Of a stretch of DNA of 64,000 nt, positions 591 to 19,500 are shown piece by piece. Made by a program: the position numbers and the translations under genes. The stretch's first letter is position 1, and each line of letters begins with the position of its first letter. The stretch lies in assembly GCF_053078305.1 (NCBI RefSeq), contig NZ_CP166879.1; one strand, written 5' to 3'. The notes beneath the pieces were generated by a model, which saw nothing but the letters and a program-made list of their open reading frames with translations, made no database searches and was not told the DNA's origin.

Positions 591-614
591 CTGGCAGTAT
601 TCTCCGTTTCAATT

Positions 615-861: not shown

Positions 862-1089
862 TTAGCTACCGCCACCAGCAGAAGAACTGGCACTACCACT
901 TCCCACGGTCGAGCCAATTGCTGTTGTCAAACCGGCAGATACGGCTCCAACTACAACCCCAAGTGGACCACCAGGTATTCCGGCGAGAGCTCCAACAATA
1001 GCTGCAGCACCTGCAGCATTAGCTGAAGTAGCTGGCGCACCTCCCGCCCCGGAAATATATCTTAACTGTGATTCTGTTATTTCTCGCAT
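862..1089 (-). CDS. mchB: Microcin H47 precursor (class IIb siderophore-microcin)
   Basis: 75 aa, MREITESQLRYISGAGGA double-glycine-type leader followed by Gly/Ala-rich core and Ser-rich C-terminus; matches my recollection of MchB. Confidence 0.9.
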   Translation of the reverse strand: MREITESQLRYISGAGGAPATSANAAGAAAIVGALAGIPGGPLGVVVGAVSAGLTTAIGSTVGSGSASSSAGGGS

Positions 1090-1116
1090 ATAAACTGCAT
1101 ATAAACTCCATCATAT

Positions 1117-1326
1117 TTAACTTCCGTTTTTCCAGCCTGACCAGACCAGAATCCTTCGAATCCCATGAATCAGCTCAATAAAACCAAGAAATATTATAAA
1201 GCTTAGAAAAACGTCAACATAAGAATTCCCTTCGCCAACAATCCGAAGGGATGAAAGTGAAACCAATAAGATAGTAATAGGTAAACTGAATATAGCCGTC
1301 AATTGGGACAGTTTTTTATAACTCAT
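1117..1326 (-). CDS. mchI: Microcin H47 immunity protein
   Basis: 69-aa hydrophobic membrane peptide immediately upstream of mchB on the same strand. Confidence 0.85.
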   Translation of the reverse strand: MSYKKLSQLTAIFSLPITILLVSLSSLRIVGEGNSYVDVFLSFIIFLGFIELIHGIRRILVWSGWKNGS

Positions 1327-1738
1327 TAATCCCTACCTGTTGCTTTATTTTCATTATGAAAAGTTACCAAATCTTAGCACCTCAGTCAGGAGAGTCAGGT
1401 CATCGATAAAGAATATTCCAGTAGAGTGGCGCTCATGATCAAAGATAACAGCAAAGTTGATGACAGCGCTGACCGACTGTCATTTACAGAAACCCTGTTT
1501 GTAGCACATTCCATCTTACCTGACCTCACCCAGACAAAGACAAAAGAGAATGATTGTTATTTACTTTTCAAAAAAAAGTGTCATATTGTCCATATAAAGT
1601 CAAGAGGTATTTTACGTTATGTCACTGATGCAATTGTTAGTCAGGATCTCATGGTTGTCGCTCATGTATAACCTGAGACTTGAACGCACACTAATAGCAC
1701 TGACGGTCATACATCGGGAAATGTGAGGAGGCATAAGA

Positions 1739-1984
1739 ATGAATTGTGATAATAATCACAGAAATGAAGAATTCATTGTTACCTTTGATAAAGGCAACAA
1801 GCAAGACAATTCAAGACGAAAACACGATAATTTTCCTATAGAGGTAGAATCCTCCGTAGAGCAGGAGACACACTGTATCACAAATAATAAGTCGGCTTCC
1901 GGTATAGTAACACATGACTATGATGCCGATTATATTTGTGGTTGTGGTGAAATTATGTGTCCTGGTTGCGGTCATGACCTATAA
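1739..1984 (+). CDS. Hypothetical small protein with C-terminal Cys cluster (CGCGEIMCPGCGH)
   Basis: 81-aa ORF preceded by AGGAGG Shine-Dalgarno; AT-rich like the neighbouring microcin genes; no double-glycine leader. Confidence 0.4.
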   Translation: MNCDNNHRNEEFIVTFDKGNKQDNSRRKHDNFPIEVESSVEQETHCITNNKSASGIVTHDYDADYICGCGEIMCPGCGHDL

Positions 1985-2139
1985 CAAACATTTTTGCAAA
2001 CTGATACCTGATCAGGTACAAGCCTGTTGATTATTATGCTGAATATTTCATGTTATAAAACCATCGATATAAACATTAACAAGAAAAAACATATATTGTT
2101 TATCTGAACATTTATCGATGGAAAACCAAAGGGGAAAGT

Positions 2140-2574
2140 ATGTATCTTACGAAAAAGATTATAATAAGTATGATGTTTATATTACCATCTGCTGCATTTT
2201 CATCAGATCCACCTCCCCTTCAACAATCGTTAGAAAAAACAACCTATTTTTCTATAGGTATGAATGGGTTTATAGGCTATCAGAGCGAAGGGGAAAAATT
2301 ATACACACACATTCTTACATTAGATAATCCCGAAGAGATATTTAAAAATATAATAAAAAATAGAAAGTCAACTAAGGAGTCTAAAATTTATGCTGCTTGT
2401 GGGCTATATTATTTAAACGTAGAAAATATAGAGTCATTGTTTAATGAAAATGATAAACAAGAATATGTGTCTGTCTTAAGAGGGGATATTTTAACAAAAA
2501 TAAAACTGAATGATATTCTGAATTCTGTGATAATAAATGGTTGCAACACCAAATTAATATCTGAACATAAATGA
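2140..2574 (+). CDS. mchS3: Putative microcin I47 immunity protein (MchS3-like)
   Basis: 144 aa with N-terminal hydrophobic segment; 16 bp upstream of the I47 precursor gene (immunity-before-structural gene arrangement). Confidence 0.55.
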   Translation: MYLTKKIIISMMFILPSAAFSSDPPPLQQSLEKTTYFSIGMNGFIGYQSEGEKLYTHILTLDNPEEIFKNIIKNRKSTKESKIYAACGLYYLNVENIESLFNENDKQEYVSVLRGDILTKIKLNDILNSVIINGCNTKLISEHK

Positions 2575-2590
2575 GCAGGAGGTCTTTAAA

Positions 2591-2824
2591 ATGAGAGAAA
2601 TATCAGATCACATGCTTGATTTCGTGAAAGGAGGGATGAATCTTAATGGATTACCTAGTTCTACTAATGTAATAGATCTACGAGGAAAAGATATGGGAAC
2701 ATATATTGATGCTAATGGAGCATGCTGGGCTCCGGGTACTCCATCCATCATCATGTATCCGGGGGGAAGTGGACCTTCTTATAGTATGAGTAGTTCCACA
2801 TCCAGTGCAAACAGCGGCAGTTAA
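2591..2824 (+). CDS. mchS2: Microcin I47 precursor (MchS2)
   Basis: 77 aa; MREISDHMLDFVKGG leader (GG cleavage motif), Ser-rich C-terminus SSSTSSANSGS typical of siderophore-microcins; GGAGG Shine-Dalgarno. Confidence 0.8.
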   Translation: MREISDHMLDFVKGGMNLNGLPSSTNVIDLRGKDMGTYIDANGACWAPGTPSIIMYPGGSGPSYSMSSSTSSANSGS

Positions 2825-2830
2825 ATAAAT

Positions 2831-2858
2831 ACCCTCCGGCATGGCCGGAGGGTATTTA
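2831..2858 (+). terminator. Rho-independent terminator after mchS2
   Basis: Stem accctccggc / gccggagggt with 3-nt loop followed by T-rich tract. Confidence 0.5.
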
Positions 2859-3112
2859 TGATGTGCCTGTAAGACTCTACTTCTGTCGTCTCTTTACAAA
2901 GGCATATGATCTGTCATTTTGTACCAGACATCTTAACGAGAGCCTTTTCATATATTACTTACATACGTGAAATCTACAGTATAAAGCAAAAATTTTATTA
3001 AACCTGTTTTATATTTATCATCAATACAACAGATTTAATTCCGGAAAGTCACTCATCATCCCTTGAATGAACGTCATTTGATGTATTATTCTTACACTTG
3101 GATTAATTTAAG

Positions 3113-4387
3113 ATGATACCTATGAAAAACTATCTTTTCCAGACACCCGAAGATATTTGTGTACAGTTAAAAAAAATGACACATCCTGTCACAATAAGAA
3201 CAACAGATATTGCTAATTTCTGGCACTATCTTGAGTCAGCAACACTTCCAGTGATCACAAAAAGCACCACTACAGAAAATCGGGAGGTTACATTTCTGTG
3301 GCGCTCAGAGAAAGCACTGCAAGGCGTATATCTTCGCCTGAATCGTGTAACAGATAAAAAAGACGTCAAAAAAGGACTAATGACTCATATCCCTTCGACA
3401 GATATCTGGATGCTGACACTGGTGTTACCAGCTTCATATCGGGGCTCATACTCATTTATAGAAATTCCCACAGATATGACACAAAAAGACATATTTCAAC
3501 TAGGAAGTCGCTTCTCTCCATTACCCGGTAAATCTGATCCATTTAACAAAACAGCAGAAATAAATATACGAGGATTCGGAGAATCAGTCCTTTCTCTTGA
3601 TATGGCTCCTGAACAAAAGGAATGGGATGATACTTCCCATAAATGTACAGGTATTCTTTCAACATTACATTCCTTTGTTGCAGGATATCAACGCCGGATT
3701 CGTTTATATTTTCCCCTGAATCCAACATCAGTACCTCTTGGATTACTTGTGTTACCTGATGCTGAAACATGGTTTGACCGGATAGATATTACCCGGGCAT
3801 TAGATATGGCCATCACCACTGGTCGTATCACGCCAATGGCAATTATGGGGATAGACAATATTAATGAATCTGATCGTATGAATATACTGGGAGGCAATAA
3901 AGAACTCATCTTTGATATAGCGGAAAATCTGATACCCCAGTTATACAGAGACTATCCGGATATCGTATGGGCTGGTCGCTCTAATACTGTACTGGCCGGG
4001 CAGAGCCTCGGTGGAGTGACAGCACTGATGGCAGCTATATATGCGTCGACAACATTTGGTACAATCATTAGTCACTCACCTTCAATGTGGTGGAACCCTG
4101 ACCAGGGCAGCCCGATCTTGTTTACTGAGAATAATACCTCCTGGGTAAGTGAGCAGATACTTTCAGCGCCTCCGAAAGATGTAAATATTCGACTTGGAGT
4201 CGGTTCTTTAGAAGGTACAACCGTCTCACATGTTCAGCGATTGCATCATTCGTTAATCGCAGCTGGTTTGGAAAGTAACCTCACTGTCTATACCGGTGGT
4301 CACGATTATGCTTGGTGGCGCGGAGCAATTATTGATGAATTAGCAAATTATAATTGCAGGAAGGTATCAAATAATAACTCTGTGTAA
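3113..4387 (+). CDS. mchS1: Enterobactin/salmochelin esterase (Fes/IroD-like), MchS1-type
   Basis: 424 aa with GQSLGG serine-hydrolase motif; sits between microcin genes and the IroB-like glycosyltransferase. Confidence 0.75.
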   Translation: MIPMKNYLFQTPEDICVQLKKMTHPVTIRTTDIANFWHYLESATLPVITKSTTTENREVTFLWRSEKALQGVYLRLNRVTDKKDVKKGLMTHIPSTDIWMLTLVLPASYRGSYSFIEIPTDMTQKDIFQLGSRFSPLPGKSDPFNKTAEINIRGFGESVLSLDMAPEQKEWDDTSHKCTGILSTLHSFVAGYQRRIRLYFPLNPTSVPLGLLVLPDAETWFDRIDITRALDMAITTGRITPMAIMGIDNINESDRMNILGGNKELIFDIAENLIPQLYRDYPDIVWAGRSNTVLAGQSLGGVTALMAAIYASTTFGTIISHSPSMWWNPDQGSPILFTENNTSWVSEQILSAPPKDVNIRLGVGSLEGTTVSHVQRLHHSLIAAGLESNLTVYTGGHDYAWWRGAIIDELANYNCRKVSNNNSV

Positions 4388-4456
4388 AATATCTTTTTAT
4401 CGTCCGATAACTCTTTCTGCAATATTATTATGGGAGACTATCTCATTTATTTAGTG

Positions 4457-4485
4457 ATGTCCTTCATTTATGTGATGAAGGACAT
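4457..4485. terminator. Hairpin between convergent mchS1 and mchA
   Basis: Inverted repeat atgtccttcat / atgaaggacat with 7-nt loop. Confidence 0.45.
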
Positions 4486-4528
4486 TATATTACTCATAAC
4501 ATTTCTCGTTGAAAATTTCAGCAATACG

Positions 4529-5653
4529 CTACAATTGTTTCCCGTTGTTTTTTAATTTTCTCATCAAAACCTCTGCAATCTCTGCAGGACTGGGTTGTTC
4601 AGCCATTTCAGCGGCTACCTGATCTGAACAGAAGCGTAGTGAATCATCATAAAGCAGGCGATTTACCAAATCACTAGTCAGTCCATGCTTGTCCGGAATA
4701 ATCCCACACCCACGCTTCGCAACAATTTCTGCATTAACAGAGCGATCTGCACCTTCGCCAAACACAATCTGTGGTATTCCACTATACAGCGCTGTCAGGG
4801 TATTACCTGCGCCACCGTGATGAATAAATCCATCAGCTCCATTAAGGAATACACCCATAGGTATCCAGTCAACCAGACGTACATTTGATGGTAGTTTTCG
4901 TAAACCAGTACGAGCATTTATTGCAAGTTGCAAAATGATATCAGCATCAACTTCATTTGCAGAATCCATAACCCATGAAATCAGCTCCAGACCATCAACC
5001 ATTGGTTTTACAGTGCCAAGGCTGATAAGTAAACGTTTCCGATCAGAATCCCTGTCCCACCATGTTTCCTTTACAGCACCTCCGTTATAAGGAATATATC
5101 TCATTGAGATAACCGGTTCTCCAGCATTTTTAAGAATGCTCATACTTGGGGGAGCAACATCAATCCATGCTAAATCACATAGTGGACCGCTGACTCCATG
5201 CCGCCTGTAAGCATTGCTTAAAGAACGGTTTAACATCTGAATATGGGCAGATGTATGCGCGAATCCAACAGCCAGCATCACTGAAGGAATTCTATATTTA
5301 GCAGCAACCAATGGGCCTGCCGGACCAAGAGGGGGATAGACTATTAAATCTGGCCTCCATTTTCCTGCAAAATTGATGAGGTTATCTGCCATTTCATCGC
5401 TAAAAAAAGAGAAATGACCAATAATATTACTTTTTTTCCTCAACTCTTCCTGATGGCGATATCCAGCCTCTGAATCTAAACCTGGAACTGCATCAAAAAC
5501 AACCAGTCCAGCTTCTGCTGCTTTATTCGCGAATTTGCCAGCGCTACTAATTACTACATCATGTCCAATTACACGAAAGGCCTGAGCCAGAGAAATCAAT
5601 GGGTATAACAAACCGTACAGCGGTGGGCCAATAAAAAGAATACGTTTTCGCAT
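4529..5653 (-). CDS. mchA: IroB-like glycosyltransferase (enterobactin C-glucosyltransferase), MchA
   Basis: 374 aa with GT1 glycosyltransferase-like features (N-terminal MRKRILFIGPP..., C-terminal HHGGAGNT motif). Confidence 0.8.
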   Translation of the reverse strand: MRKRILFIGPPLYGLLYPLISLAQAFRVIGHDVVISSAGKFANKAAEAGLVVFDAVPGLDSEAGYRHQEELRKKSNIIGHFSFFSDEMADNLINFAGKWRPDLIVYPPLGPAGPLVAAKYRIPSVMLAVGFAHTSAHIQMLNRSLSNAYRRHGVSGPLCDLAWIDVAPPSMSILKNAGEPVISMRYIPYNGGAVKETWWDRDSDRKRLLISLGTVKPMVDGLELISWVMDSANEVDADIILQLAINARTGLRKLPSNVRLVDWIPMGVFLNGADGFIHHGGAGNTLTALYSGIPQIVFGEGADRSVNAEIVAKRGCGIIPDKHGLTSDLVNRLLYDDSLRFCSDQVAAEMAEQPSPAEIAEVLMRKLKNNGKQL

Positions 5654-6367
5654 TAAAAAAGTCCGTCTTCTGCTTACCTGTTTATTTTTCTATCTCTAAG
5701 AAAACATAATTAATATTATTTTTATGTGAGCTTATGCACAAAAATAACCAAGTATATTATCTTCTGGTAGAGATACAGGATACAGTTTGTAGGAGCTTTC
5801 TTTTTTGAACAATGATTTGCAGGACAGTTATGCTAAACTAGCGGAATCAGTATCACAACAATAAATGACTGTTCATACCTGAAATTTGAATTAACAGGCA
5901 TCATGAATGTCAATAGTCTAAGCGGTGACTACTTATATCGCTTGCATAAATACTAAACACTGACTAGAAAAGTATTGGATAACCCCGTCACTAAAAGTAA
6001 CGCTTCGGTTATTTGCTCGGAATGTATTAACGCCAAGATTGTTAGCCGTTACGCCTTATATCACTGGCGCTGACAAATGTTTCTTTTCTAATTTACTGAA
6101 CCGGCGCAGACACGCAGGAAAGCACGCCGGCACCGGTGTAATGCCAGTTCTAATCAATAAGAATGGAATGACGAATCAGTCAGGAAGGGATAACAACCCG
6201 CTGCTGAACGGAAGGTATCAGCAGGAAGATGAACGGGAATATCGCCAGCACCAAGGGCAGGGCCGGGTTCCACAATACCAGCGCTGGCATTTTGCACATT
6301 GCCAGCGTACCGGCATTACAACACGTTTCATGCTGCTGCCCCCAGGATTCCTCGATTCGTTGCTACA

Positions 6368-6405
6368 TCCACTGCTCTACTTCACTTCCACTGCTCCACT
6401 TCACT
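6368..6405. repeat. Tandem 19-bp direct repeat (1 mismatch) spanning the alpA copy-1 stop codon
   Basis: tccactgctctacttcact / tccactgctccacttcact read directly. Confidence 0.75.
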
Positions 6406-6579
6406 TTTGTACCAGCGGCTGCTGCGCCCCAGTTTGATGGGTTTAGGGAAATGGCCTTCACTGATCAACTTGTAAAACCATTTGTCGGTCATACCGGTGA
6501 AACTGGTGATATAGTTCATGTCGATCAGGGAATTATCGGCACGCAGAAATACGCTGTCGTGGCTTGTTGTAGTCAACAT
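6382..6579 (-). CDS. alpA: AlpA-family (phage Vis/AlpA) transcriptional regulator, copy 1
   Basis: 65 aa; ...MTDKWFYKLISEGHFPKPIKLGRSSRWYKSEVEQWK matches the AlpA family signature. Confidence 0.8.
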   Translation of the reverse strand: MLTTTSHDSVFLRADNSLIDMNYITSFTGMTDKWFYKLISEGHFPKPIKLGRSSRWYKSEVEQWK

Positions 6580-6644
6580 GGTCAGAATGTCCTGTGAGAT
6601 TTATGAAGATTGTGCGAATGCGGGGAATCTGCTGAGCTGTGCTT

Positions 6645-6860
6645 TCAGAACTGGCCTGTTACGGGATACCAGGGATTACCGGCGGGGTAACGGGCTTCCG
6701 GATCATACACACCACGATTATCGCGGACAAAATCACTGAACGCCCATATCACCTCTTTAAGTATGTCTTCGCAGTCCGGTAAATGACGATCCAGCGCCAC
6801 ATCCCGGGTGGTACAGCTTTGATGCGCCCGGTGACACAAAGCCCGGATTGTTCCAGACAT
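6645..6860 (-). CDS. Hypothetical 71-aa protein between the Gp2-family gene and alpA
   Basis: ATG-initiated ORF co-oriented with flanking genes; weak ribosome-binding site. Confidence 0.3.
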   Translation of the reverse strand: MSGTIRALCHRAHQSCTTRDVALDRHLPDCEDILKEVIWAFSDFVRDNRGVYDPEARYPAGNPWYPVTGQF

Positions 6861-6964
6861 CCTGAATCAAACGCCCCAGATTAGGGGCGTCGAAATATGC
6901 CTCTCTGACCATTATATTCCGGCGTACAGGTAGCAGGTCTGAAGTGACAATGCGTCACCTGACG

Positions 6965-7531
6965 TTAAAAGTCACTACACCCAAGATGACGTTCAATGGC
7001 ACCATAGGATTCAATGTAAGCCCGGGCCGTCTGTTCCAGTACACCAGGCTCAGCGTTGTATGTGTTAGCTGCATCAAATACCAACGACAACACTTCAGGA
7101 TACACAACCAGATGTGTAATGGAGTTATCTTCACTCAATACTTTTCCCCACGCCTGCTCAATCAGATTTCTTAGAACCACCACCTCACGACTCTTACACC
7201 AGACATCGTTATTAAGTAGCAGCACCATAAGATAAGGAGTGGTATCGTTAGCCACAGCTTCCCTACTCCAGAGATAATATAAAGGGGTGGGCTCAACAGA
7301 TTGATCTTTACGTCGCTTACACTGCAAATATTCAGAAATGAGTCTATGCAGTTCACCAGTAAAATCAGCCATCAGAGAGGGAATGGCCTTATTAATACCC
7401 TGCCCTGGTATTAATTTAAATTGTAATAATTTAATTTCAGGATGTGTGGCTGCAGCCCGATACAGAGTTGCAAGGACACACTTTTGCCAGAGGGCGTTAC
7501 AGGAAAGCTTAACATTTGATTCTGTATACAT
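6965..7531 (-). CDS. Inovirus Gp2-like / YfjJ-YagK family protein, copy 1
   Basis: 188 aa with the hydrophobic core motif (YLMVLLLNNDVW) seen in YfjJ/YagK family; AAGGTG Shine-Dalgarno. Confidence 0.7.
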   Translation of the reverse strand: MYTESNVKLSCNALWQKCVLATLYRAAATHPEIKLLQFKLIPGQGINKAIPSLMADFTGELHRLISEYLQCKRRKDQSVEPTPLYYLWSREAVANDTTPYLMVLLLNNDVWCKSREVVVLRNLIEQAWGKVLSEDNSITHLVVYPEVLSLVFDAANTYNAEPGVLEQTARAYIESYGAIERHLGCSDF

Positions 7532-7598
7532 AATAAATCACCTTACAGTTACAACAGGTCAAAAACCGCTGTAGCCAGAGTTACGCTGGCCTGATGCT

Positions 7599-7808
7599 TT
7601 AGCATCGGGCTTCGTCAAATAATCCAGAATCCAGACGTGCCAATAAGCGCTGATACTGCTCAGGGAAATCAGGAGCATTAATATCCTGGATGTCACGTCC
7701 ATTAGCAGGGAAATGAACAATGCAGCCCCCTGGATTAACTATGCAGAAATCATCCTGAGGCACTGATAAATACGGAGAGGACTCTCGCGTATGGTTGATT
7801 GACACCAC
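7599..7808 (-). pseudogene. Possible gene remnant (ORF lacking an ATG start)
   Basis: 69-codon frame starting with GTG, no in-frame ATG; protein-like C-terminus (DFPEQYQRLLARLDSGLFDEA). Confidence 0.25.
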
Positions 7809-8009
7809 AGTGCGAATTCGGCGGATGCGAGATCACGGTACGATTCCGCACCACACTACCAATCAATACCCCGGGTTTTATTCAGGTAAGCAGGACTGCG
7901 GATATCCGGTGTCGCGCCGTTGTGTCACGAACGGGGTGGGTGCGAAACACCGGATAAAATACAGGTTGGCAATACCTCTGAACGCCCTGCGCAGAGCGGG
8001 GATTTCGGA

Positions 8010-8816
8010 TTAAGTACTCGCACCTCCGCAGTCCTCAAACAAGTCTGGCTGGTAGCTGTAAACAGACTTCGTACATACCGCTCTGCAATAAATCCCCGTA
8101 CCACAGGCCTCACAGAACTTCTTCCCATGAAAAAACTGCTCACACATCACACAATGCCACTCCAGCACGACCGATAATGGCGATAAAAACATCGCCATAT
8201 CCTCAATGTAAGGGTGGGACTTTTCCGGATTCAGCACCACACAGTCCGCCTTCTGTTGCTCACTCAGGGCATGTAAATCATGCTCAAACCATGCCCCCTG
8301 AGCATCTGTCTGCAGAATCAACCGGCCATGGCAGGAAAGGCAGAAACAATGCCGGATATTTCTGCTGAGCGCAGAGTCGGCACTGATAATGTGTTCACCC
8401 GGCGTGATCCCCAGCCCCGTTTTTATACCGTTCATTCTGCTACCCCCCTCCTCACTGAAGCGTCCGGTCTGGCAGTGTGTGCAGTACCGCTCCCCATAAT
8501 AATCGTGGTGACATTGTCTGCAGTGCCAGCTGGCTTTACGCACCACGGGTAAGGCATCCGGGACGAATTGCTGCAGACGTTTAATCAACTGTATTTCTCT
8601 GCGTTCCGGCCTGACATAAGGACATTGCTGCGCGTGCTCCGTCAGCCCTTCGTCAGCGTGTTCAAACCAGGGCCGTTCAGTGTCGTATTGCGGGTGGTAT
8701 CTGAGTGCACTGCCGCAAAGGTGGCAGGTGTAGCGGTCGTAAGGCGCAGTCTGTGCGGTACGGGCCCCCGTCAGACGTCCGTTGCCATCAAGAGCGAGAA
8801 AGGATTTTGCGTACAT
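8010..8816 (-). CDS. Cys/His-rich protein with internally duplicated zinc-ribbon-like motifs
   Basis: 268 aa; two halves each carrying CxxC ... WFEH ... WHCxxC ... CxxC patterns; GAGGAA Shine-Dalgarno. Confidence 0.65.
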   Translation of the reverse strand: MYAKSFLALDGNGRLTGARTAQTAPYDRYTCHLCGSALRYHPQYDTERPWFEHADEGLTEHAQQCPYVRPERREIQLIKRLQQFVPDALPVVRKASWHCRQCHHDYYGERYCTHCQTGRFSEEGGSRMNGIKTGLGITPGEHIISADSALSRNIRHCFCLSCHGRLILQTDAQGAWFEHDLHALSEQQKADCVVLNPEKSHPYIEDMAMFLSPLSVVLEWHCVMCEQFFHGKKFCEACGTGIYCRAVCTKSVYSYQPDLFEDCGGAST

Positions 8817-9075
8817 AGTATATATTCCTCAGCCGCCAGACGACACGCAGGCAACAGCCGTCCAGGTACGGGCAGCGTGGTCAGGTGTGAATGGCGGTTC
8901 AGTTAAAATCTGGACTGGAGTTTGGGTAAAGCAGGCTGGTTGCTGTTACAGCACTGTGGTTGTCACACAATGGCCCACTGACGTAAAAAACAGTCAGTGG
9001 GCGAGTGGATACATCGTTGCCGCCAGACAACAACCCATACTTTTGGTTTGCCGGGTATTGGTGCGCCTGTCGTGT

Positions 9076-9645
9076 TCAACTCCGGCTACAGCCAAAATTG
9101 CGCTCACCGGTGCCGCGAGCTTTGGTATGCTCCTTCGCCAGATAGCCAGAACGTTCCAGCACCTGCTGAAAGCCGGTTTCATCATCGCGTTCCAGCCACA
9201 CCGCTGGCTTGTCAGGAAAATGTGCCAGCGTGTCATAACGTCCGGCATCCACTCCCAGGGCACTGCACCAGGCCTGTTTAATAATCCCGGCCAGTGACCC
9301 CGGAGCGCGGTAATCGCCGGCACGACACCAGGTATCCCGGTTGACCAGCAGCAGCAGGTGATAGTGTTTTTTGCCTTTAAGCTCCCCGAACTCCCGGGCC
9401 CAGGCGTAATGCAGGGTCGAGGAATGCACGCGTTTACCTTCCCGATGCTTACGTTTCTGGTAAGCGTCGATTCGGGCTTTCAGGGCATTGATGAAGCGGG
9501 ATATCACAGCCGCGTCCGTTGCTGCCGGTACATCCGGGAGACGCAGATCAACCCGCAATGCCGTCAGACGGGGATGAACATCCAGTGCGTGCCGCACCGT
9601 CTCACGAATACGTTGCTGCCAGAAGGGGTTGTATTTGTAGGTCAT
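9076..9645 (-). CDS. Inovirus Gp2-like / YfjJ-YagK family protein, copy 2
   Basis: 189 aa; KKHYHLLLLVNRDTW motif; GGAGA Shine-Dalgarno. Confidence 0.7.
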   Translation of the reverse strand: MTYKYNPFWQQRIRETVRHALDVHPRLTALRVDLRLPDVPAATDAAVISRFINALKARIDAYQKRKHREGKRVHSSTLHYAWAREFGELKGKKHYHLLLLVNRDTWCRAGDYRAPGSLAGIIKQAWCSALGVDAGRYDTLAHFPDKPAVWLERDDETGFQQVLERSGYLAKEHTKARGTGERNFGCSRS

Positions 9646-9849
9646 GGTTAAATCTCCGTATGGTTTCGTTCATACGGATTAACCACGCCGTAAAAAATGC
9701 GCAGAGTCCCTGAAGTGATCTCCAACCAGGCAATATCTCAGGCACTCTGAGATAACCCGAACGGTCGTCTCCGGACTGACGGTTGAATTTTCAGCGTTGT
9801 TTTTTTAATGTAAAAAACCGATTACGGATAAGGCTGTGAGGAGGGAGTT

Positions 9850-10050
9850 ATGGTGATACGCAAAAAGAAGTGCTGGGACTGTGGAAACGCGATTACTCAT
9901 AATACTGTGTGTTGCCCGTATTGTGGTTCTGTCGACCCCTTCGGCTATTACCGGAATACAGACCGTATCGTTACTATACTGCTGGCACTGATTATTGTGG
10001 TCCTGCTGACTACTGTCAGCGTCAGTGTGTATATACTGTGTAGCTGGTGA
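9850..10050 (+). CDS. Small zinc-ribbon membrane protein
   Basis: 66 aa; CWDCG ... CCPYCG followed by one hydrophobic helix; strong GAGGAGGG Shine-Dalgarno. Confidence 0.5.
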   Translation: MVIRKKKCWDCGNAITHNTVCCPYCGSVDPFGYYRNTDRIVTILLALIIVVLLTTVSVSVYILCSW

Positions 10051-10464
10051 GATAACGGTTCATGTATCCCCTGAGCTGACAGTGTACCGGGTATATTAAG
10101 CGTAACCGACAGGTTCTCCTTCATACCATATTAAATTTTTCCAGGTATTGCCGCTGCCTTATTTCGTCTCATACAGGAAAACTCGTCTGGGTTTCTGACA
10201 AATACGTGAAACTCACAGCCCCTCAATATCAACCACACGCTGTAAGCCGGTAATACCTGAAAATCAGCCCATTACCGCCCACGCCTCCGGCACCATTCCC
10301 TTTAGATTTCGAATTCTTTGTTGTCGCTATACCGCTTAACGTTCCCGGTATTATCCTGGTTCCCGACAACAGGAACATATTCAGCTTTTAATAACCTGAG
10401 AAGAGCCAATAAGAATCACAAAGCGGATAACACCTGGCGCGATGCAGTTGTGATTACCGAACGC

Positions 10465-10662
10465 TCAGATGACATATTTCCAGACTGAAGCGGGAACACG
10501 ATCGTAAAGCTTGTTCATTGTCAGTTCTGCCAGCCAGTGATCAACCACAGAGTTGAAGGCTTCCAGTTCCGCAGAGGTAAGTTTATAACGCGTGTGGGAA
10601 ATCACTTTTTCCAGCGTCTCCCGGGATGAACAACGACGGAACTGCTTTGGTTTTAACTTCCA
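10465..10662 (-). pseudogene. Gene remnant (frame-disrupted small ORF)
   Basis: Protein-like 65-codon frame (...ETLEKVISHTRYKLTSAELEAFNSVVDHWLAELTMNKLYDRVPASVWKYVI) without a start codon; the nearby ATG is in another frame. Confidence 0.3.
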
Positions 10663-11372
10663 TTAGCCTCTCATCACTTTATGCTGCAATTAACGTGATA
10701 CTGTCAGCATACCGCCAGACTGGCATTCTGGTACCCACCCCAAACTCATTACTCCCGAGCCACCACTTAACCGGTCTCTCAGACTGTCACTCACCAGGTC
10801 GGATATGTTTACCGCTCAGACGGATGCTTAATGCACTCTGTTCACGTACATTGCAGATACGTTTTATATACGCGGGTTATACGCCAGCTATCAGGGATAG
10901 CGCAGTCTGTTGCTACTGCGTTCTCATCATGCCCACTGATCACACTCACCGTGTTTATTTCACATATATGAACTCATGTATTTGATCTCATGTGTTTGAT
11001 CTCTCTTATATATTTATAATACCAATCAGACAGTCTTATCCCATCGGTGATACCTGTCACCTGCCCACCGGACACGGTCTGCCCCATCGTAACCGCCCCG
11101 TAAATAACTCTGCAATTATCAGAACGCCAGTTTTCCCCTCTTCCTCACGAAAATCATCCCTTCTTTATCGCGCGCGCGTGCGGAAGCATCGTTTCGTAAC
11201 AACCACCCGGCATACCGGTACGGCTCAGCCACCGTAACCTCCCCGTTTATCTCCTGGCGGTCACATTCCCGATTATTTTTTACGTTTCTCCCCGGTTGTT
11301 ATGCCGGTGAAGGTGGTGCGTTGTTTTCATGACCACACCGGCTGGTTTAACAACATCCGGAGGAACATTCTC

Positions 11373-11579
11373 ATGATCACCCCAGTTTCACTGATGGATG
11401 ACCAGATGGTCGACATGGCATTTATCACTCAACTGACCGGCCTGACCGATAAGTGGTTTTACAAACTCATCAAGGATGGTGACTTTCCTGCGCCCATCAA
11501 AATGGGCCGCAGCTCCCGATGGCTGAAAAGCGAAGTGGAAGCCTGGCTGCAGGCGCGTATTGCACAGTCCCGTCCGTAA
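11373..11579 (+). CDS. alpA: AlpA-family transcriptional regulator, copy 2
   Basis: 68 aa from MITPVSLMDDQ...; TDKWFYKLIKDGDFPAPIKMGRSSRWLKSEVEAW; GGAGG Shine-Dalgarno. Confidence 0.8.
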   Translation: MITPVSLMDDQMVDMAFITQLTGLTDKWFYKLIKDGDFPAPIKMGRSSRWLKSEVEAWLQARIAQSRP

Positions 11580-11659
11580 TTCTTAACCGTTCATCTGCAG
11601 CAGACGCAGTCTCCGGCCTGCCGGCGGCGTTCTGCTGCCTGTTATCCCCCGTGAGGAAT

Positions 11660-12268
11660 ATGAAAATGAAACCACAGTATCAGACCCGTTACGAGCTGCT
11701 CCACGAAAGCTACCAGAAATGGCTGACCGGCTTCACCCGGCACGCCGTATCCTGGGGCGTGTGTCATCCGAATATCTACTACTTCCATAATCTGACGCCC
11801 GGGTGGGTGTCATTCAATGGTGAAAAACCGGAGATTGCCATCGTACCCCAGAGTCTGCACCGGCTGATGTATGGTCCGGACAAACGGACCACGCCGCCCC
11901 TGGATGATGATCTGATAGTGAATTTATGCACCAGTGAACATCTGCTGGTTCATCATCCGATGCTGGAAGGCATTCTCCTGTCTGAATGTGAACGTCTGAG
12001 GCAGCGTTCGCTGGCAAATAAACTGATCAGCCTCTTCCGTCAGTTTGGTGGCACGGAGTTGCGCCTCAAACTGGTCTGGCTTTGCTGGCTTGATTTAATG
12101 ACCGGAAACTGCCTTGACGACTGGACGGAGAATCTGAAACGGAAATCAGAAAAAGAGCTGGAGGAATGGATCATCAACCGTCAGAAGCAGAGCGCAGCAC
12201 TGACGGATCTGATGGATCAGTACGTGCTCCTGGCATACCGCACAACGGTTGACGATAAGCGCACCTGA
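11660..12268 (+). CDS. Hypothetical protein (about 203 aa) immediately downstream of alpA copy 2
   Basis: ORF with GAGGAA Shine-Dalgarno, start at ATG 11660 or 11666; no recognisable family. Confidence 0.6.
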   Translation: MKMKPQYQTRYELLHESYQKWLTGFTRHAVSWGVCHPNIYYFHNLTPGWVSFNGEKPEIAIVPQSLHRLMYGPDKRTTPPLDDDLIVNLCTSEHLLVHHPMLEGILLSECERLRQRSLANKLISLFRQFGGTELRLKLVWLCWLDLMTGNCLDDWTENLKRKSEKELEEWIINRQKQSAALTDLMDQYVLLAYRTTVDDKRT

Positions 12269-12491
12269 TGCCAGTTGTTTCAGGGAAGCTGGTATCCGGG
12301 CAGGGTGCCAGGGCTGACTGAACGGCCTGTCTGCCTGCCGTTTCGCTCTCCGTGCGTTCTGTCACACGCTGCACCTGAACGCCGGACTGCGGGCACGCAG
12401 ACAGGAAAGACGCAGGCTGGAACTTCTGACCGGCGGGTATCAGTTATATGCCTGTTGATTCATCACCACCACGCAGTTCCTGAGCTTTAGT

Positions 12492-12529
12492 TCATCACCG
12501 ATATTCATACATCTGAATATCGGTGATGA
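12492..12529. terminator. Perfect 16-bp inverted repeat (6-nt loop) between convergent genes
   Basis: tcatcaccgatattca tacatc tgaatatcggtgatga read directly. Confidence 0.6.
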
Positions 12530-12589
12530 AATCCCCATAATAATCAATCATCTAAGTCTGAAGCATAATAGAGAAAAACTGCTCACCGG

Positions 12590-14074
12590 TTACTTCGCTC
12601 TCAGCTTATTGTAGTGATAACCCGAGGTAAAAATACCAGAGACATCAGACAACTTTAAACTGGCTATCTGGGGAAGCAGAACATACATGGTTTTTCCTTC
12701 CGGCACGACAGAAAGCCTGAACTGAGATTCAAGAATGTTCAGCAATGCGTTCAGTTTTTTCCTGTTTCTGAACCGGCCCGGGCCACACTGGAGAATATAA
12801 TTTTTCCTGACACGGGGCGGGCATTCTCCGCGGCACTCCTCAATGAGCCAGTCGAACAGCTCCTCGGCGTCCTTCTGCTGCAGTTCAGATTCATTAGGTA
12901 ACGCAAATAATTTTTTATATTCATCTGTGTACCACGAACTTATTACGACAGCAGACGTCATGATATCGGCAGAGATTTTCCCTTCACCATAGCTGAAATA
13001 CTGAAATAACGCTGCAATTCTTGCAATGTTTTCTGTTTTTTTTGAAACATGTCCCCGAAACGGGCTTAAGGGTCCGGAAGGGGATAAATCCTGCTCCAGA
13101 ACATTATAGTGCTCAATAAATATTTTTTGCGCTTCAGGCGAAAAATGCAGACAATACCGTTCATCCTCACTGGATTTTTCAATACTGCCTCTGGCCAGTT
13201 CCATTAATCGTTCATGAAATGCCGTTAATGATCCTCCCGGAATCACAGCTCCATTAATAAAGCGTTTCCCCTGCGTGGTTGCAGGTTTACTGATAAGACA
13301 ACGGGCAAGAAAACCACTGTCCCTGGCAACAGAACCTTTTCGCTCCATATATCGGTCAAAAAGACCGGGTTGCACCATGAGGGATAACGTCATTCTGGCA
13401 TTTTCAATCATCTGTTCGGGTTCATTCTTTCTGTCCACAGACAATACAGAGCCATCCCACATTTTGTTAATAAAAGGCAACTCAGACAGGGTATATCCAT
13501 CAAATATAATACCGGCTTCATCTGACATAATACCCACTGAACGCCATTTACCACAAAGCTGATTCTTAATTGCCGCAGTCGTGGCATCATTAAAAATGAA
13601 TTTATACCTCACAGGTTCTTCCGCACTGTTTTTCTGAAGTACTTCCAGTTGTCTGAGGGTTTCTGACTCATCCGCGCCTTTGCGGAGTTCTTTATTCAGT
13701 TTTGACAACAATGCTTTTTTCTGAGCCTTTAAAAGCTCTTCCTTGTTTTTCCAGACAGCCAGTTCACTTTTGTATCTGGAATATAACTGCATCTCCTGCT
13801 GGTACAGGGGCTTCATTAATAATTTGTCCACTGCGGTTTTTCGTTCTCCGGACTCGGCAAGCGTCAGGAAAAAAAGAGAGACCGGCCCCCGCAGTGTATT
13901 CAGTCTGCAGACATCAATCAGATTCTGGCAGACAAGTGAAACAGCGCCCAGGGCAGACGCTGCCACAAGCCCAAGGGGAGCCTGCGTAATTTGCTGAGCT
14001 TCAATAACGGCATCACGAATGAGTGGAGGCAGCGAACTCAGGGGAAACTCATCACAAGGCTGACCGAATGACAT
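12590..14074 (-). CDS. YfjI-like protein (DUF3987-type, P4/CP4-like element protein)
   Basis: 494 aa from MSFGQPCDEF... (ATG 14074, GAGG Shine-Dalgarno); family assignment from recall of CP4-57 yfjI. Confidence 0.55.
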   Translation of the reverse strand: MSFGQPCDEFPLSSLPPLIRDAVIEAQQITQAPLGLVAASALGAVSLVCQNLIDVCRLNTLRGPVSLFFLTLAESGERKTAVDKLLMKPLYQQEMQLYSRYKSELAVWKNKEELLKAQKKALLSKLNKELRKGADESETLRQLEVLQKNSAEEPVRYKFIFNDATTAAIKNQLCGKWRSVGIMSDEAGIIFDGYTLSELPFINKMWDGSVLSVDRKNEPEQMIENARMTLSLMVQPGLFDRYMERKGSVARDSGFLARCLISKPATTQGKRFINGAVIPGGSLTAFHERLMELARGSIEKSSEDERYCLHFSPEAQKIFIEHYNVLEQDLSPSGPLSPFRGHVSKKTENIARIAALFQYFSYGEGKISADIMTSAVVISSWYTDEYKKLFALPNESELQQKDAEELFDWLIEECRGECPPRVRKNYILQCGPGRFRNRKKLNALLNILESQFRLSVVPEGKTMYVLLPQIASLKLSDVSGIFTSGYHYNKLRAK

Positions 14075-15303
14075 AGTAACCTCACTACACACAGATATAA
14101 AAGTACTGCAATTCTGGCTATTAATAGCAAAAATAGCAGTCAAATCAATATGAGGTAAAAATTTTTGTTGCTTTAATGGTTAAATAATAACCACAGTGTG
14201 TTTTGCTGCTGAAGAAAGACAAAATGAATCTGTGTGTCCCCTCCTTCCCTTCAGAGCACATCCACTATTCAAATTTTACACAACCACGTACGAACAAAAA
14301 GCATCATCCCGGGTATTGCAGATACCGGTTTCCTGCCGGGAAGAATCATAAACAGAACACCGGGAATAACGCCTTCAGGAATCCCCCCCTCCTGAAGAAG
14401 AATAAAATAAAGAAGACTACAGTTCCTGCACTGAATGCTGAGTACAATATTCTATGGACAGGATGACATATTTATAAATAACAAAAACCATTTAATACTG
14501 ATACATCAATAAAATACTTCCTCCCTGCTGACGCAGATAAAATGCACCATTTTTTCTTCAAATACTTCTGTATAATCGCCAGCCAATGATGAGAATGGAT
14601 TAAAATAACACTTCTTCGACAAACACAAAAACAGCCTTCATTTTACATCATCATCCAGTTTCAGTTAACCCCGGACGAGCGACAGCGTTTCAGTACAGGA
14701 ATTAAAAGCCAGCTTTTGCTCAGTAAAAACACACTCAACTAATAATATCTCAGCAGATATTATCCTGACCAGGACACCTCACATTACTGAATTCTCTTCC
14801 GACAGTATCACTGCACAAATAAAAAAGAACTGGATAAATATTCAGACCGGAAGAATGGTGTCACAAAAGCATTTAATCATTACGCATGACCAGGAAGGGA
14901 AACACTTAACCACATGGTATCAACAGATATCATTACGTGTGCACTCTTATAAAAAACACACAGAAGAAGTAAGATAATTATAAACGTAAATTTAATATCT
15001 CCCACTGACATCTCCCCCACAATACACTGAAAAATACTCACAGCAGTAAACACAGACACACCTGATAATCATGCAGCCGATAAATATTTTCCCCTTTACG
15101 GAGAAATCAGCCTGCTGTTTAACAATAACGGCGTATTTTCATGGAAGGAGATCACCCAGTAACGGATAAGTCCTGATCTCCTTCATGTTAATACGCAACA
15201 ATCCCATCGATTCAAAACAATTTCAGACAGATATTATCTCCGTGAATCCCCCGCCACCTTTCCGGTGCGCGGGGTTTTGTCTTTTTTCACCGGGAATACA
15301 TGT

Positions 15304-16176
15304 ATGAATCCGTCTGATGCCATTGAGGCAATTGAAAAACCGCTCTCCTCCCTGCCTTACTCGCTTTCCCGTCACATCCTGGAACATCTGCGCAAACTCA
15401 CCCGTCACGAACCAGTGATTGGCATTATGGGTAAAAGCGGGGCCGGTAAATCCTCACTCTGTAATGCACTGTTTCAGGGGGAGGTCACCCCGGTCAGTGA
15501 TGTTCACACCGGCACCCGGGAAGTACGGCGCTTCCGTCTGAGTGGCCACGGTCACAGCATGGTTATCACTGACCTGCCCGGGGTGGGCGAGAGCCGGGAC
15601 AGGGATGCAGAGTATGAGGCCCTGTACCGTGACATTCTGCCTGAACTGGACCTGGTACTGTGGCTGATTAAAGCCGATGACCGTGCCCTGTCTGTGGATG
15701 AGTATTTCTGGCGACACATCCTGCACCGGGGACATCAGCGGGTACTGTTTGTGGTGACGCAGGCCGACAAAACGGAGCCCTGCCATGAATGGGATATGGC
15801 CGGTATTCAGCCTTCTCCTGCACAGGCACAGAATATTCGCGAAAAAACGGAGGCGGTATTCCGTCTGTTCCGGCCCGTACATCCGGTTGTGGCCGTATCG
15901 GCCCGCACCGGCTGGGAACTGGATACGCTGGTCAGTGCGCTCATGACAGCGCTTCCCGACCATGCCGCCAGTCCCCTGATGACCCGACTGCAGGACGAGC
16001 TGCGCACGGAATCTGTCCGGTCTCAGGCCCGTGAACAGTTTACCGGTGCGGTGGACCGGATATTTGACACGGCGGAGAGCGTCTGTATTGCCTCTGTTGC
16101 ACGCACGGTTCTGCGTGCCGTCCGTGACTCGGTGGTCTCTGTTGCCCGCGCTGTATGGAACTGGATTTTCTTCTGA
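15304..16176 (+). CDS. yeeP: YeeP/YfjP/YkfA-family GTPase
   Basis: 290 aa; P-loop GIMGKSGAGKSS; directly upstream of flu as in CP4-44. Confidence 0.8.
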   Translation: MNPSDAIEAIEKPLSSLPYSLSRHILEHLRKLTRHEPVIGIMGKSGAGKSSLCNALFQGEVTPVSDVHTGTREVRRFRLSGHGHSMVITDLPGVGESRDRDAEYEALYRDILPELDLVLWLIKADDRALSVDEYFWRHILHRGHQRVLFVVTQADKTEPCHEWDMAGIQPSPAQAQNIREKTEAVFRLFRPVHPVVAVSARTGWELDTLVSALMTALPDHAASPLMTRLQDELRTESVRSQAREQFTGAVDRIFDTAESVCIASVARTVLRAVRDSVVSVARAVWNWIFF

Positions 16177-16295
16177 ACACTCTGCCAGGGGAAATGCCTG
16201 ATTACATTGCGTTAACCAACTGAAAACATGACACAAACCCCTCATCCCCCTCCTGTTTCTCTTGCGTGACCGCTCTGCTGTCAATAGAATAAAAC

Positions 16296-16331
16296 GATCG
16301 ATAAAACAGGTATCGATCGTTACTATCGATC
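16296..16331 (+). promoter_or_regulatory. Ag43 phase-variation switch: three closely spaced GATC (Dam) sites in the OxyR-binding region
   Basis: GATC at 16296, 16315 and 16328, about 220-250 bp upstream of the flu start. Confidence 0.7.
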
Positions 16332-16548
16332 GTTTATAGTGGTTAATGGTCTGCGAAAAGGCAGCTGAATCTCTTCATCATGCAGAACGGAATTGCACAC
16401 AACGGACTGATACTTCTCTGGCGGATGAGAGAGGGGAAGCATTTATGTCCGGGAAAAACCACTTTATCTGACCATGCTGTTTTGTACCTGCCGGTATCCA
16501 CATTTGTGGGTACCGGCTTTTTTATTCACCCTCTGTAAGGAAAAGCTG

Positions 16549-19500
16549 ATGAAACGACATCTGAACACCAGCTACAGGCTGGTATGGAATCACATTACGG
16601 GCACCCTGGTGGTGGCCTCCGAACTGGCCCGCTCACGGGGAAAACGCGCCGGTGTGGCGGTTGCGCTGTCTCTTGCTGCTGTCACATCAGTCCCGGCACT
16701 GGCTGCTGACACGGTTGTACAGGCGGGAGAAACCGTGAACGACGGAACACTGACAAATCATGACAACCAGATTGTCTTCGGTACGGCCAACGGAATGACC
16801 ATCAGTACCGGGCTGGAACTGGGGCCGGACAGTGAAGAAAACACCGGTGGGCAATGGATACAGAATGGCGGGATAGCCGGAAACACCACTGTCACCACAA
16901 ATGGTCGTCAGGTCGTGCTGGAGGGGGGAACAGCCAGTGATACGGTTATTCGTGACGGCGGGGGACAGAGCCTGAACGGGCTGGCGGTGAACACCACGCT
17001 GAATAACAGAGGCGAGCAGTGGGTTCATGAGGGCGGGGTTGCCACCGGTACAATTATCAACCGCGACGGTTACCAGAGCGTTAAAAGTGGCGGGCTGGCA
17101 ACAGGAACCATCATCAACACCGGCGCAGAAGGCGGCCCGGATTCTGACAACTCGTACACGGGTCAGAAGGTCCAGGGAACAGCAGAATCCACCACCATCA
17201 ACAAAAATGGACGGCAGATTATCTTATTTTCCGGGATAGCCCGTGACACTCTCATTTACGCAGGTGGTGACCAGTCGGTACACGGAAGGGCCCTGAATAC
17301 CACACTGAATGGCGGTTACCAGTATGTGCACAAGGACGGACTTGCGCTGAACACGGTAATTAACGAGGGGGGCTGGCAGGTTGTTAAGGCAGGTGGTGCT
17401 GTCGGTAACACCACCATAAATCAGAACGGTGAACTGAGGGTACATGCCGGCGGGGAAGCCACTGCAGTCACCCAGAACACGGGCGGTGCACTGGTTACCA
17501 GTACGGCTGCAACCGTTACCGGCATAAACCGCCTTGGAGCATTCTCGGTTGTGGAGGGTAAAGCTGATAATGTCGTACTGGAAAATGGCGGACGCCTGGA
17601 TGTGCTGACCGGACACACAGCCACTAATACCCGCGTGGATGATGGCGGAACGCTGGATGTCCGCAACGGTGGTACCGCCACCACCGTATCCATGGGAAAT
17701 GGCGGTGTACTGCTGGCCGATTCCGGTGCCGCTGTCAGTGGTACACGGAGCGACGGAAAGGCATTCAGTATCGGAGGCGGTCAGGCGGATGCCCTGATGC
17801 TGGAAAAAGGCAGTTCATTCACGCTGAACGTCGGTGATACGGCCACGGATACCACGGTAAATGGCGGACTGTTCACCGCCAGGGGCGGCACACTGGCGGG
17901 CACCACCACGCTGAATAACGGCGCCATACTTACCCTTTCCGGGAAGACGGTGAACAACAATACCCTGACCATCCGTGAAGGCGATGCACTCCTGCAGGGA
18001 GGCTCTCTCACCGGTAACGGCAGCGTGGAAAAATCAGGAAGTGGCACACTCACTGTCAGCAACACCACACTCACCCAGAAAGCCGTCAACCTGAATGAAG
18101 GCACGCTGACGCTGAACGACAGTACCGTCACCACGGATGTCATTGCTCAGCGCGGTACAGCCCTGAAGCTGACCGGCAGCACTGTGCTGAACGGTGCCAT
18201 TGACCCCACGAATGTCACTCTCGCCTCCGGTGCCACCTGGAATATCCCTGATAACGCCACGGTGCAGTCGGTGGTGGATGACCTCAGCCATGCCGGACAG
18301 ATTCATTTCACCTCCACCCGCACAGGGAAGTTCGTACCGGCAACCCTGAAAGTGAAAAACCTGAACGGGCAGAATGGCACCATCAGCCTGCGTGTACGCC
18401 CGGATATGGCACAGAGCAATGCTGACAGACTGGTCATTGACGGCGGCAGGGCAACCGGAAAAACCATCCTGAACCTGGTGAACGCCGGCAACAGTGCGTC
18501 GGGGCTGGCGACCAGCGGTAAGGGTATTCAGGTGGTGGAAGCCATTAACGGTGCCACCACGGAGGAAGGGGCCTTTGTCCAGGGGAACAGGCTGCAGGCC
18601 GGGGCCTTTAACTACTCCCTCAACCGGGACAGTGATGAGAGCTGGTATCTGCGCAGTGAAAATGCTTATCGTGCAGAAGTCCCCCTGTATGCCTCCATGC
18701 TGACACAGGCAATGGACTATGACCGGATTCTGGCAGGCTCCCGCAGCCATCAGACCGGTGTAAATGGTGAAAACAACAGCGTCCGTCTCAGCATTCAGGG
18801 CGGCCATCTCGGTCACGATAACAACGGCGGTATTGTCCGTGGGGCCACGCCGGAAAGCAGCGGCAGCTATGGCTTCGTCCGTCTTGAGGGTGACCTGCTC
18901 AGAACAGAGGTCGCCGGTATGTCTCTGACGACAGGGGTGTATGGTGCTGCAGGCCATTCTTCCGTTGATGTTAAGGATGATGACAGCTCCCGTGCCGGCA
19001 CGGTCCGGGATGATGCCGGCAGCCTGGGCGGATACCTGAATCTGATACACAACGCCTCCGGACTGTGGGCTGACATTGTGGCCCAGGGAACCCGCCACAG
19101 CATGAAAGCCTCATCGGACAATCACGACTTCCGCGCACGGGGCCGGGGCTGGCTGGGCTCACTGGAAACCGGTCTGCCCTTCAGTATCACTGACAACCTG
19201 ATGCTGGAGCCACAACTGCAGTACACCTGGCAGGGACTTTCCCTGGATGACGGTAAGGACAACGCCGGTTATGTGAAGTTCGGGCATGGCAGTGCACAAC
19301 ATGTGCGTGCCGGATTTCGTCTGGGCAGCCACAACGATATGAACTTTGGTAAAGGCACCTCATCCCGTGACACCCTGCGCGGCAGTGCCAAACACAGTGT
19401 GCGTGAACTGCCGGTGAACTGGTGGGTACAGCCTTCTGTTATCCGCACCTTCAGTTCCCGGGGGGACATGAGCATGGGTACAGCCGCAGCCGGCAGTAAC

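Follow-up and report, generated by a model that had tools for sequence, protein, structure and literature searches.

Two opposed alpA genes in an Escherichia coli tRNA-Phe island and a probable in-place inversion of the alpA2-orf200 cassette

Introduction

How do two genes of one regulatory family come to face in opposite directions within a single genomic island? The question is raised by a 64,000-nucleotide stretch of Escherichia coli DNA (contig NZ_CP166879.1, assembly GCF_053078305.1), referred to below as the window, in which two AlpA-family helix-turn-helix genes, alpA1 and alpA2, lie on the minus and plus strands, respectively. The window comprises the distal ~29.5 kb of an island at tRNA-Phe (pheU side), followed by core genome. 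A preliminary description made from the sequence alone interpreted the region as two whole AlpA-headed modules in inverted arrangement, and suggested a rearrangement or fusion of two P4/CP4-like elements. The opposite orientation of the two genes is confirmed here, and a rearrangement is retained as its explanation, in the form of a cassette inversion within a mosaic backbone. The fusion is not retained, given a single attachment site and no integrase remnant. The inverted unit is also far smaller than two modules: it is probable that alpA2 and the adjacent gene orf200, a cassette of at least 0.84 kb, underwent one old, fixed in-place inversion, so far seen in E. coli only. Gene names and coordinates are collected in Table 1, and compared loci are designated by L numbers.

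Distribution of the arrangement in E. coli

In a survey of 5426 complete E. coli genomes, 93 carry at least 80% of window positions 5800–15000, collinear on one strand, and 1072 carry at least 80% of positions 9000–14250 (Gp2b, the spacer, alpA2, orf200, the hairpin, and yfjI). The more than 1000 near-identical copies display a single orientation, joined as one place on one strand. Cargo to the left of the shared arrangement varies between genomes: strain 04-00955 carries microcin and type VI secretion system genes, STEC1588 a haemagglutinin system, and OkiPb01681 a fatty-acid-type gene cluster. In strain 04-00955 the island adjoins kps and gsp genes, not cadC. Diverged copies (86–93% DNA identity) retain Gp2b on the minus strand and alpA2-orf200 on the plus strand, with a 305–335-residue gene replacing yfjI before the GTPase gene. 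The two opposed alpA genes belong to a widely shared E. coli island backbone, and are not peculiar to this genome. Because the same order recurs in 93 to 1072 genomes next to different cargo, the underlying event appears to be old and fixed. A local or recent event does not hold, as related islands show the same gene order, an outcome that the preliminary description had itself named as a refutation.

Comparison with other Enterobacterales

Homologs of orf200 (~60% identity) occur in many Enterobacterales, and 29 orf200 loci from other genera were compared by tblastn. A standard layout, here called type C, recurs across 13 or more other genera and also in a few rare E. coli islands (11 of the 5426 complete genomes, with a coverage of at least 80%). 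The genera include Yersinia, Serratia, Hafnia, Salmonella, Klebsiella, Pantoea, Mixta, Kluyvera, Lelliottia, Photorhabdus, Providencia, Pectobacterium, Edaphovirga, and Enterobacter. In this layout the GTPase gene points one way, and AlpA, orf200, the Gp2-like and zinc-ribbon genes, and cargo point the other. The GTPase arm diverges from AlpA-orf200 in all 21 other-genera loci where both are visible. Wherever Gp2b-like and zinc-ribbon genes occur, they run in the direction of AlpA, mostly right after orf200. In three of the loci, the far end of that arm holds a P4-type (IntA-like, 34–36% identity) integrase. The orf200-linked AlpA proteins of other genera are 66–78% identical to the alpA2 product. 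No yfjI was detected within ~10 kb in any of the other-genera loci.

Type C islands (L011–L041, L044–L046), which often carry Dnd, BREX, or restriction cargo, share the two-arm plan of the window island. Identities between the two are 66–78% for AlpA, 46–64% for orf200, 42–60% for the GTPase, and 69–76% for DUF932 (94% at one locus). Whereas AlpA-orf200 in type C runs away from the GTPase arm, in one direction with the Gp2 and zinc-ribbon genes, the window cassette is flipped; unlike the window, no type C island has a second alpA. Alignment by blastn with L044, one of the rare E. coli islands of this type, locates the difference. The GTPase block (L044 7307–8279) matches window 16177–15210 in reverse, the AlpA-orf200 block (9707–10554) matches 11383–12225 in the forward direction, and the Gp2 end/zinc-ribbon block (11357–11551) matches 8997–8801 in reverse. 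The three blocks keep their order, and the middle block alone is flipped relative to both neighbors. As the flanks remain collinear, a single in-place inversion of the alpA2-orf200 cassette is the probable event. The flipped form is taken as derived because the standard layout occurs in at least 13 genera, and the flipped form has been seen only in E. coli.

Several points weigh against this interpretation. The breakpoints are bounded only to 8997–11383 and 12225–15210, and comparison of the window with itself found no inverted repeats left flanking the cassette. The direction of change is derived by parsimony, not from a dated tree. The order within the AlpA arm varies: Gp2 precedes AlpA in three other-genera loci and in L051 and L052, and in the latter two AlpA is not directly followed by orf200, so that more than one rearrangement event is possible. 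The AlpA tree considered below was built by neighbor-joining without support values from a protein of ~65 residues, and is indicative only. Scans of 9500–15400 for promoter and terminator patterns gave counts no higher than in shuffled sequence. Finally, the island integrase and left end lie outside the window.

Alternative explanations

An end-to-end (tandem) fusion of two complete CP4/P4-like elements, with later loss of one integrase, would account for the presence of two alpA paralogs from different clades. It would also be consistent with five Gp2-family genes or fragments, several pseudogenes, and a yfjI related to that of CP4-57 (53% identity). However, the window holds a single copy of the tRNA-Phe attachment sequence and none internally, the two alpA modules have no integrase remnant between them, and the GTPase/toxin-antitoxin arm occurs once only. 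The alpA1 segment is moreover bracketed by genes that are contiguous in L042 and L047. A fusion is therefore considered unlikely. Self-comparison of the whole window revealed none of the flanking inverted repeats that the preliminary description had proposed to look for at 6.3 kb and 14.1 kb.

That the E. coli order might be the ancestral one, and the AlpA-orf200-Gp2 layout of other genera derived, is suggested by numbers within E. coli, where the window's order is far commoner (1072 versus 11 complete genomes). The type C layout in the other genera listed above makes this very unlikely, as do the surroundings of distant orf200 homologs (28–33% identity), where the orf200-like gene again runs in one direction with Gp2, AlpA, and two zinc-ribbon genes. 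An active invertible switch driven by a site-specific recombinase would explain a small cassette opposed to its neighbors and lying beside a perfect palindrome. However, the cassette lacks flanking inverted repeats, no invertase is annotated among nearby genes, and the more than 1000 near-identical copies share one orientation; the two orientations are seen only between lineages ~68% identical in DNA. A switch is thus improbable in the extreme, and a single ancient inversion of alpA2-orf200 is the preferred explanation.

The alpA1 segment

The preliminary description placed alpA1 at the head of its module. It lies instead at the downstream end of a co-directional, minus-strand series of Gp2-like genes. 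Apart from the alpA pair (133 bp, 72% identity, inverted, E = 3e−13), the 64-kb window showed no internal repeat. Both products exceed the curated PF05930 cut-off (21 bits) and match the PHROG family "excisionase and transcriptional regulator." The alpA1 product is 91% identical to the L007 allele and 60% identical (amino acid) to that of alpA2. In the neighbor-joining tree, alpA1 and the L007/L008 alleles form a clade outside alpA2 and all AlpA proteins of other genera. As far as this indicative tree allows, alpA1 appears to be an older paralog than alpA2, with separate ancestry.

The alpA1 protein has 65 residues compared with 78 in intact alleles. Alignment with the L007/L008 alleles shows that a 19-bp insertion, which copies the adjacent bases, introduces a premature stop, and alpA1 is probably no longer functional. 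The truncated allele (WP_000958487.1) is also annotated in O157:H7 and O104:H4 genomes.

A 190-residue gene, hyp573, precedes alpA1-type genes in other E. coli islands, and all of its database homologs are from E. coli. It is intact in L007 and L008, where the complete module comprises hyp573, alpA, a small ORF, and a YfjJ-like gene, all co-directional; window 6106–6810 matches L007 10001–10693 at 87%. Some genomes (L003, L004) have lost alpA1 wholly or partly. In L042 and L047, a DUF4222-hyp77-hyp207 block directly adjoins the zinc-ribbon gene. Since its flanks are contiguous in these two loci, the whole alpA1 segment is an internal insertion/deletion difference within one island arm, and not the end of a second element. 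Decay is evident around alpA1 and in the spacer between Gp2b and alpA2, in the form of the 19-bp duplication and remnants of hyp573, hha, and the 88-residue gene (hyp88). The spacer measures 1.73 kb in full, and the annotated zinc-ribbon ORF of 66 residues also lies in it. The 1.3 kb described previously as noncoding corresponds to 10051–11372, and contains two gene remnants (hha and the 88-residue gene) where one had been reported. A full-length hha occupies the equivalent place in L042.

An insertion lies in the spacer downstream of alpA1. The microcin H47 genomic island has been described as a 13-kb mini-island that itself encodes no recombination proteins (Azpiroz et al. 2011, PMC3191183). 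The window holds its right-hand part (1–6240, with a right boundary at about 6155–6236), and genomes in which this spacer is "empty" (L003) align with the window on either side of the inserted DNA. Microcin genes occupy positions 1–5.6 kb (mchB, mchI, and the genes that follow). The right boundary is a few hundred bases downstream of alpA1, which stands just outside the right repeat and does not belong to the mini-island.

A model for the E. coli island

Islands of the wider family consist of two arms diverging from a central point. One arm runs from the GTPase gene to the CbeA/CbtA toxin-antitoxin pair, with attR at its end; the second runs from AlpA, usually with orf200 directly next, through Gp2-like/zinc-ribbon genes and cargo to the integrase. 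In the E. coli lineage, alpA2-orf200 would then have been flipped, so as to point toward the GTPase arm and away from the Gp2b and zinc-ribbon genes formerly downstream of it. Small genes (hha and others) would later have entered the spacer thus created between Gp2b and alpA2, and decayed there. Upstream of the GTPase gene, a CP4-57-like yfjI that converges on orf200 would have taken the place of the previous gene, with the hairpin between yfjI and orf200. Layered on the inversion would be the segment with the older paralog alpA1 and, downstream of alpA1, the microcin H47 mini-island. The left breakpoint interval is now filled by hha, the 88-residue gene, and the small zinc-ribbon ORF, or by a 263-residue gene in other islands; the right interval is filled by yfjI or the 305–335-residue gene.

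The backbone is a mosaic of at least three lineages: alpA2-orf200 (Enterobacterales-wide), alpA1-hyp573 (seen in E. coli only), and a CP4-57-related yfjI. The inversion would have uncoupled alpA2-orf200 from the transcription unit of Gp2b, the zinc-ribbon genes, and cargo. By family membership, the alpA2 product is a putative excisionase-like DNA-binding regulator.

The two-alpA arrangement is ordinary mosaic evolution and decay of a genomic island after an old inversion. It carries little weight for biology at large, as an odd-looking arrangement turns out to be a fixed and widespread feature of an E. coli pathogenicity-island backbone. For island specialists, it provides a clear two-arm reference layout, and an inversion, dated by its distribution, by which the common Ag43-type islands of E. 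coli differ from related islands of other genera. In the literature searched, neither the inversion nor orf200 was found to be described.

The orf200 gene

The 200-residue orf200 product has no Pfam, PHROG, NCBIfam, or PDB-sequence match, and an exhaustive profile search yielded homologs in only 123 clusters. An AlphaFold2 model based on 22 sequences is confident and mostly helical (pLDDT 86.7, pTM 0.86), with no significant structural match among solved structures. With a confidently predicted fold that lacks a known relative, orf200 is the one mildly novel element of the region.

Since orf200 immediately follows AlpA at 27 of the 29 related loci, it is suggested that the two work together. 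It is a more speculative and rather doubtful proposition that defence and virulence islands across the Enterobacterales are controlled by a conserved two-gene cassette of AlpA and orf200, with orf200 acting as an AlpA partner of previously unseen fold, and that inversion of this cassette rewired the E. coli island. Were this so, the inversion would have cut the cassette from the Gp2/zinc-ribbon/cargo unit and set it convergent to yfjI, and such rewiring could help explain why Ag43-type islands persist as largely immobile, decaying elements. The gene is a natural next target for understanding island regulation.

In type C islands of other genera (L011, L013, L014) and a rare E. coli one (L045), the genes directly after AlpA-orf200-(Gp2) are often defence genes, such as Dnd, BREX, or helicase/methylase clusters, and this position looks like a cargo hot spot.

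The hairpin between orf200 and yfjI

The preliminary description noted a perfect hairpin with 16-bp arms (12492–12529). The hairpin is present, with perfect arms one base longer on each side (12491–12507 and 12514–12530). Its RNA folding energy is −25.5 kcal/mol (z = −5.7), and none of 200 shuffled sequences folds as well. It was found at this locus alone in 1175 genomes. The possibility that it is a dispersed repeat was rejected, as its one to three copies per genome match the number of islands. The diverged alleles L042 and L043 carry hairpins of other sequence at the same position between orf200 and yfjI, sharing the outer TCACC…GGTGA bases. Because sequence differs while position and outer bases are shared, selection for structure is indicated. 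No run of T follows the hairpin on either strand, as would be expected of a textbook intrinsic terminator, and no similar hairpin was found downstream of K-12 yfjI. It may act as a stop or 3′-end stabilizer for the two convergent transcripts.

Approximately 170 bp past the orf200 stop codon, the 3′ end of the shorter (190-residue) orf200 allele is present once more (12434–12465). This duplicated 3′ end points to a recombinant joint between orf200 and yfjI in this type of island. A 20-nucleotide pair within Gp2b and yfjI (9130–9149/12660–12679, 90% complementary) was judged to be due to chance.

Island context and relation to known elements

The island is inserted at the 3′ end of a tRNA-Phe gene, and a copy of this end (21 of 23 bases) marks the far boundary as attR, the only such copy in the window. 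Beyond it lie the core genes cadC (from 30119), cadBA, lysU, dcuSR, and fumB. No tRNA genes were found in the window. A tblastn search of the window with K-12 IntA gave no match at E ≤ 0.01, in agreement with the preliminary description, and the island integrase must lie upstream. Remnants of YfjH, K-12-type AlpA, and hyp305/hyp335 were likewise absent from the window at this threshold.

The GTPase gene opens a conserved series, GTPase-Ag43-DUF932-antirestriction-RadC-CbeA/CbtA. The presence of the GTPase-DUF932-antirestriction-RadC-CbeA/CbtA arm is established by the annotation of 99%-identical DNA, collinear to window position 25.4 kb, and by Pfam for the GTPase. Within a CP4-like E. coli island that has the microcin H47 genes as cargo, the region as a whole probably represents the conserved arm of regulatory and replication-like genes.

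The E. coli K-12 cryptic prophage CP4-57 (intA-yfjH-alpA-yfjI-yfjJ…yfjP…yfjZ/ypjF) likewise occupies the 3′ end of a small RNA gene, and has in common with the window island the AlpA, YfjI/DUF3987, YfjJ/Gp2, and GTPase families, as well as DUF932, antirestriction, RadC/JAB, and CbeA/CbtA-type toxin-antitoxin genes. However, alpA, yfjI, and yfjJ are adjacent and co-directional in CP4-57, whereas the window has yfjI convergent with alpA2-orf200, and Gp2b divergent from alpA2. CP4-57 lacks orf200 and the zinc-ribbon gene, both present in the window. The window AlpA proteins are only 24–25% identical to K-12 AlpA, which activates integrase expression and excision in CP4-57 and is the outgroup of the tree, and they do not qualify as its orthologs.

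The region does not qualify as a P4-type satellite or phage-inducible chromosomal island. Capsid-redirecting or packaging products (Sid, Psu, Delta, or equivalents) are not annotated in near-identical relatives, and the window YfjI has a DUF3987 helicase-like domain only, unlike the P4 primase-helicase module. Pseudomonas tmRNA islands have the intY integrase at one end and alpA beside an inovirus Gp2-like gene in a conserved region at the other, with RadC present and defence cargo between the ends, and are moved by jumbo-phage transduction (PMC12595487). By this description they are comparable to the window island, from which they differ in genus, integration site, and gene set, and which is not known to be moved by such transduction.

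Gene map and minor features

The gene map (Table 1) is based on the open reading frame (ORF) list, Pfam, PHROG, and the RefSeq annotation of strain 04-00955 (99.8% identical genome), which gives the same start for alpA2.

Table 1. Features of the two-alpA region and its flanks (window coordinates)
Feature	Position	Strand	Description	Basis
19-bp tandem duplication	6365–6402		At alpA1 3′ end	Repeat search; alignment with L007/L008 alleles
alpA1	6382–6579	−	AlpA-family helix-turn-helix gene	Pfam PF05930 Phage_AlpA, 39.4 bits, E = 5e−10
hyp573′ pseudogene	6645–6915	−	C-terminal remnant of 190-residue gene	RefSeq: frameshifted, incomplete in identical DNA
Gp2a	6965–7531	−	YagK/YfjJ (inovirus Gp2-like), 188 residues	Pfam PF11726 E = 7e−10; PHROG 32179/25019
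YagK/YfjJ gene fragment	7599–7808	−	YagK/YfjJ domain protein in relatives' annotation	Weak PF11726 match
Double zinc-ribbon gene	8010–8816	−	268-residue ORF, two DUF7828 + Zn_ribbon_11 units	Pfam E = 2e−52, two stretches
Gp2b	9076–9645	−	Inovirus Gp2/YfjJ-like, 189 residues	Pfam PF11726 E = 2e−45; K-12 YfjJ 35% identity (blastp)
Zinc-ribbon/membrane ORF, 66 residues	9850–10050	+	Annotated in relatives	ORF list; weak Zn_ribbon_3 match
Hha/YmoA-family remnant	10471–10644	−	N-terminally truncated; residues 12–69 of 70-residue homolog	tblastn, 95% identity
88-residue hypothetical gene remnant	11010–11232	−	Frameshifted	L017 protein matches in three frames (tblastn)
alpA2	11373–11579	+	Intact AlpA-family gene, 68 residues	Pfam PF05930, 34.5 bits, E = 2e−8
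Minimal inverted segment (alpA2-orf200)	11383–12225	+	Flipped relative to type C layout	blastn versus L044
orf200	11666–12268	+	Uncharacterized 200-residue gene, first after alpA2	
Hairpin	12491–12530		17-bp perfect arms, 6-nucleotide loop, between convergent orf200 and yfjI	
yfjI	12590–14074	−	DUF3987, helicase-like	Pfam E = 1.5e−95; PHROG "DNA helicase"; K-12 YfjI 53% identity (blastp)
GTPase gene	15265–16176	+	YeeP/YfjP-like; used as orientation anchor	Pfam MMR_HSR1; relatives' annotation
attR	29480–29502	+	Copy of tRNA-Phe 3′ end	21/23 bases matched; 0 expected by chance

The single 268-residue zinc-ribbon ORF of the window corresponds to two overlapping zinc-ribbon genes (~127 and 141 residues) in the relatives L003, L004, and L042, and the annotation of the 99.8%-identical strain treats one half as a pseudogene. 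An Rfam scan of positions 4000–17000 (E ≤ 1) detected only IS102 RNA, between the GTPase gene and Ag43 (16294–16530, 74.6 bits, E = 3e−11) and outside the two-alpA region.

Between attR and cadC, at approximately window 29739–29898, a short tyrosine-integrase remnant is annotated in the 97.7%-identical relative L009. It lies outside the present island, and an earlier element at the site may have left it behind. Positions 24000–48000, about one quarter island and the rest core genome (cadCBA, lysU, dcuSR, fumB), are at most 97.7% identical to any of the 5426 complete genomes. As this seems low for core genes, the source strain may belong to a divergent lineage.

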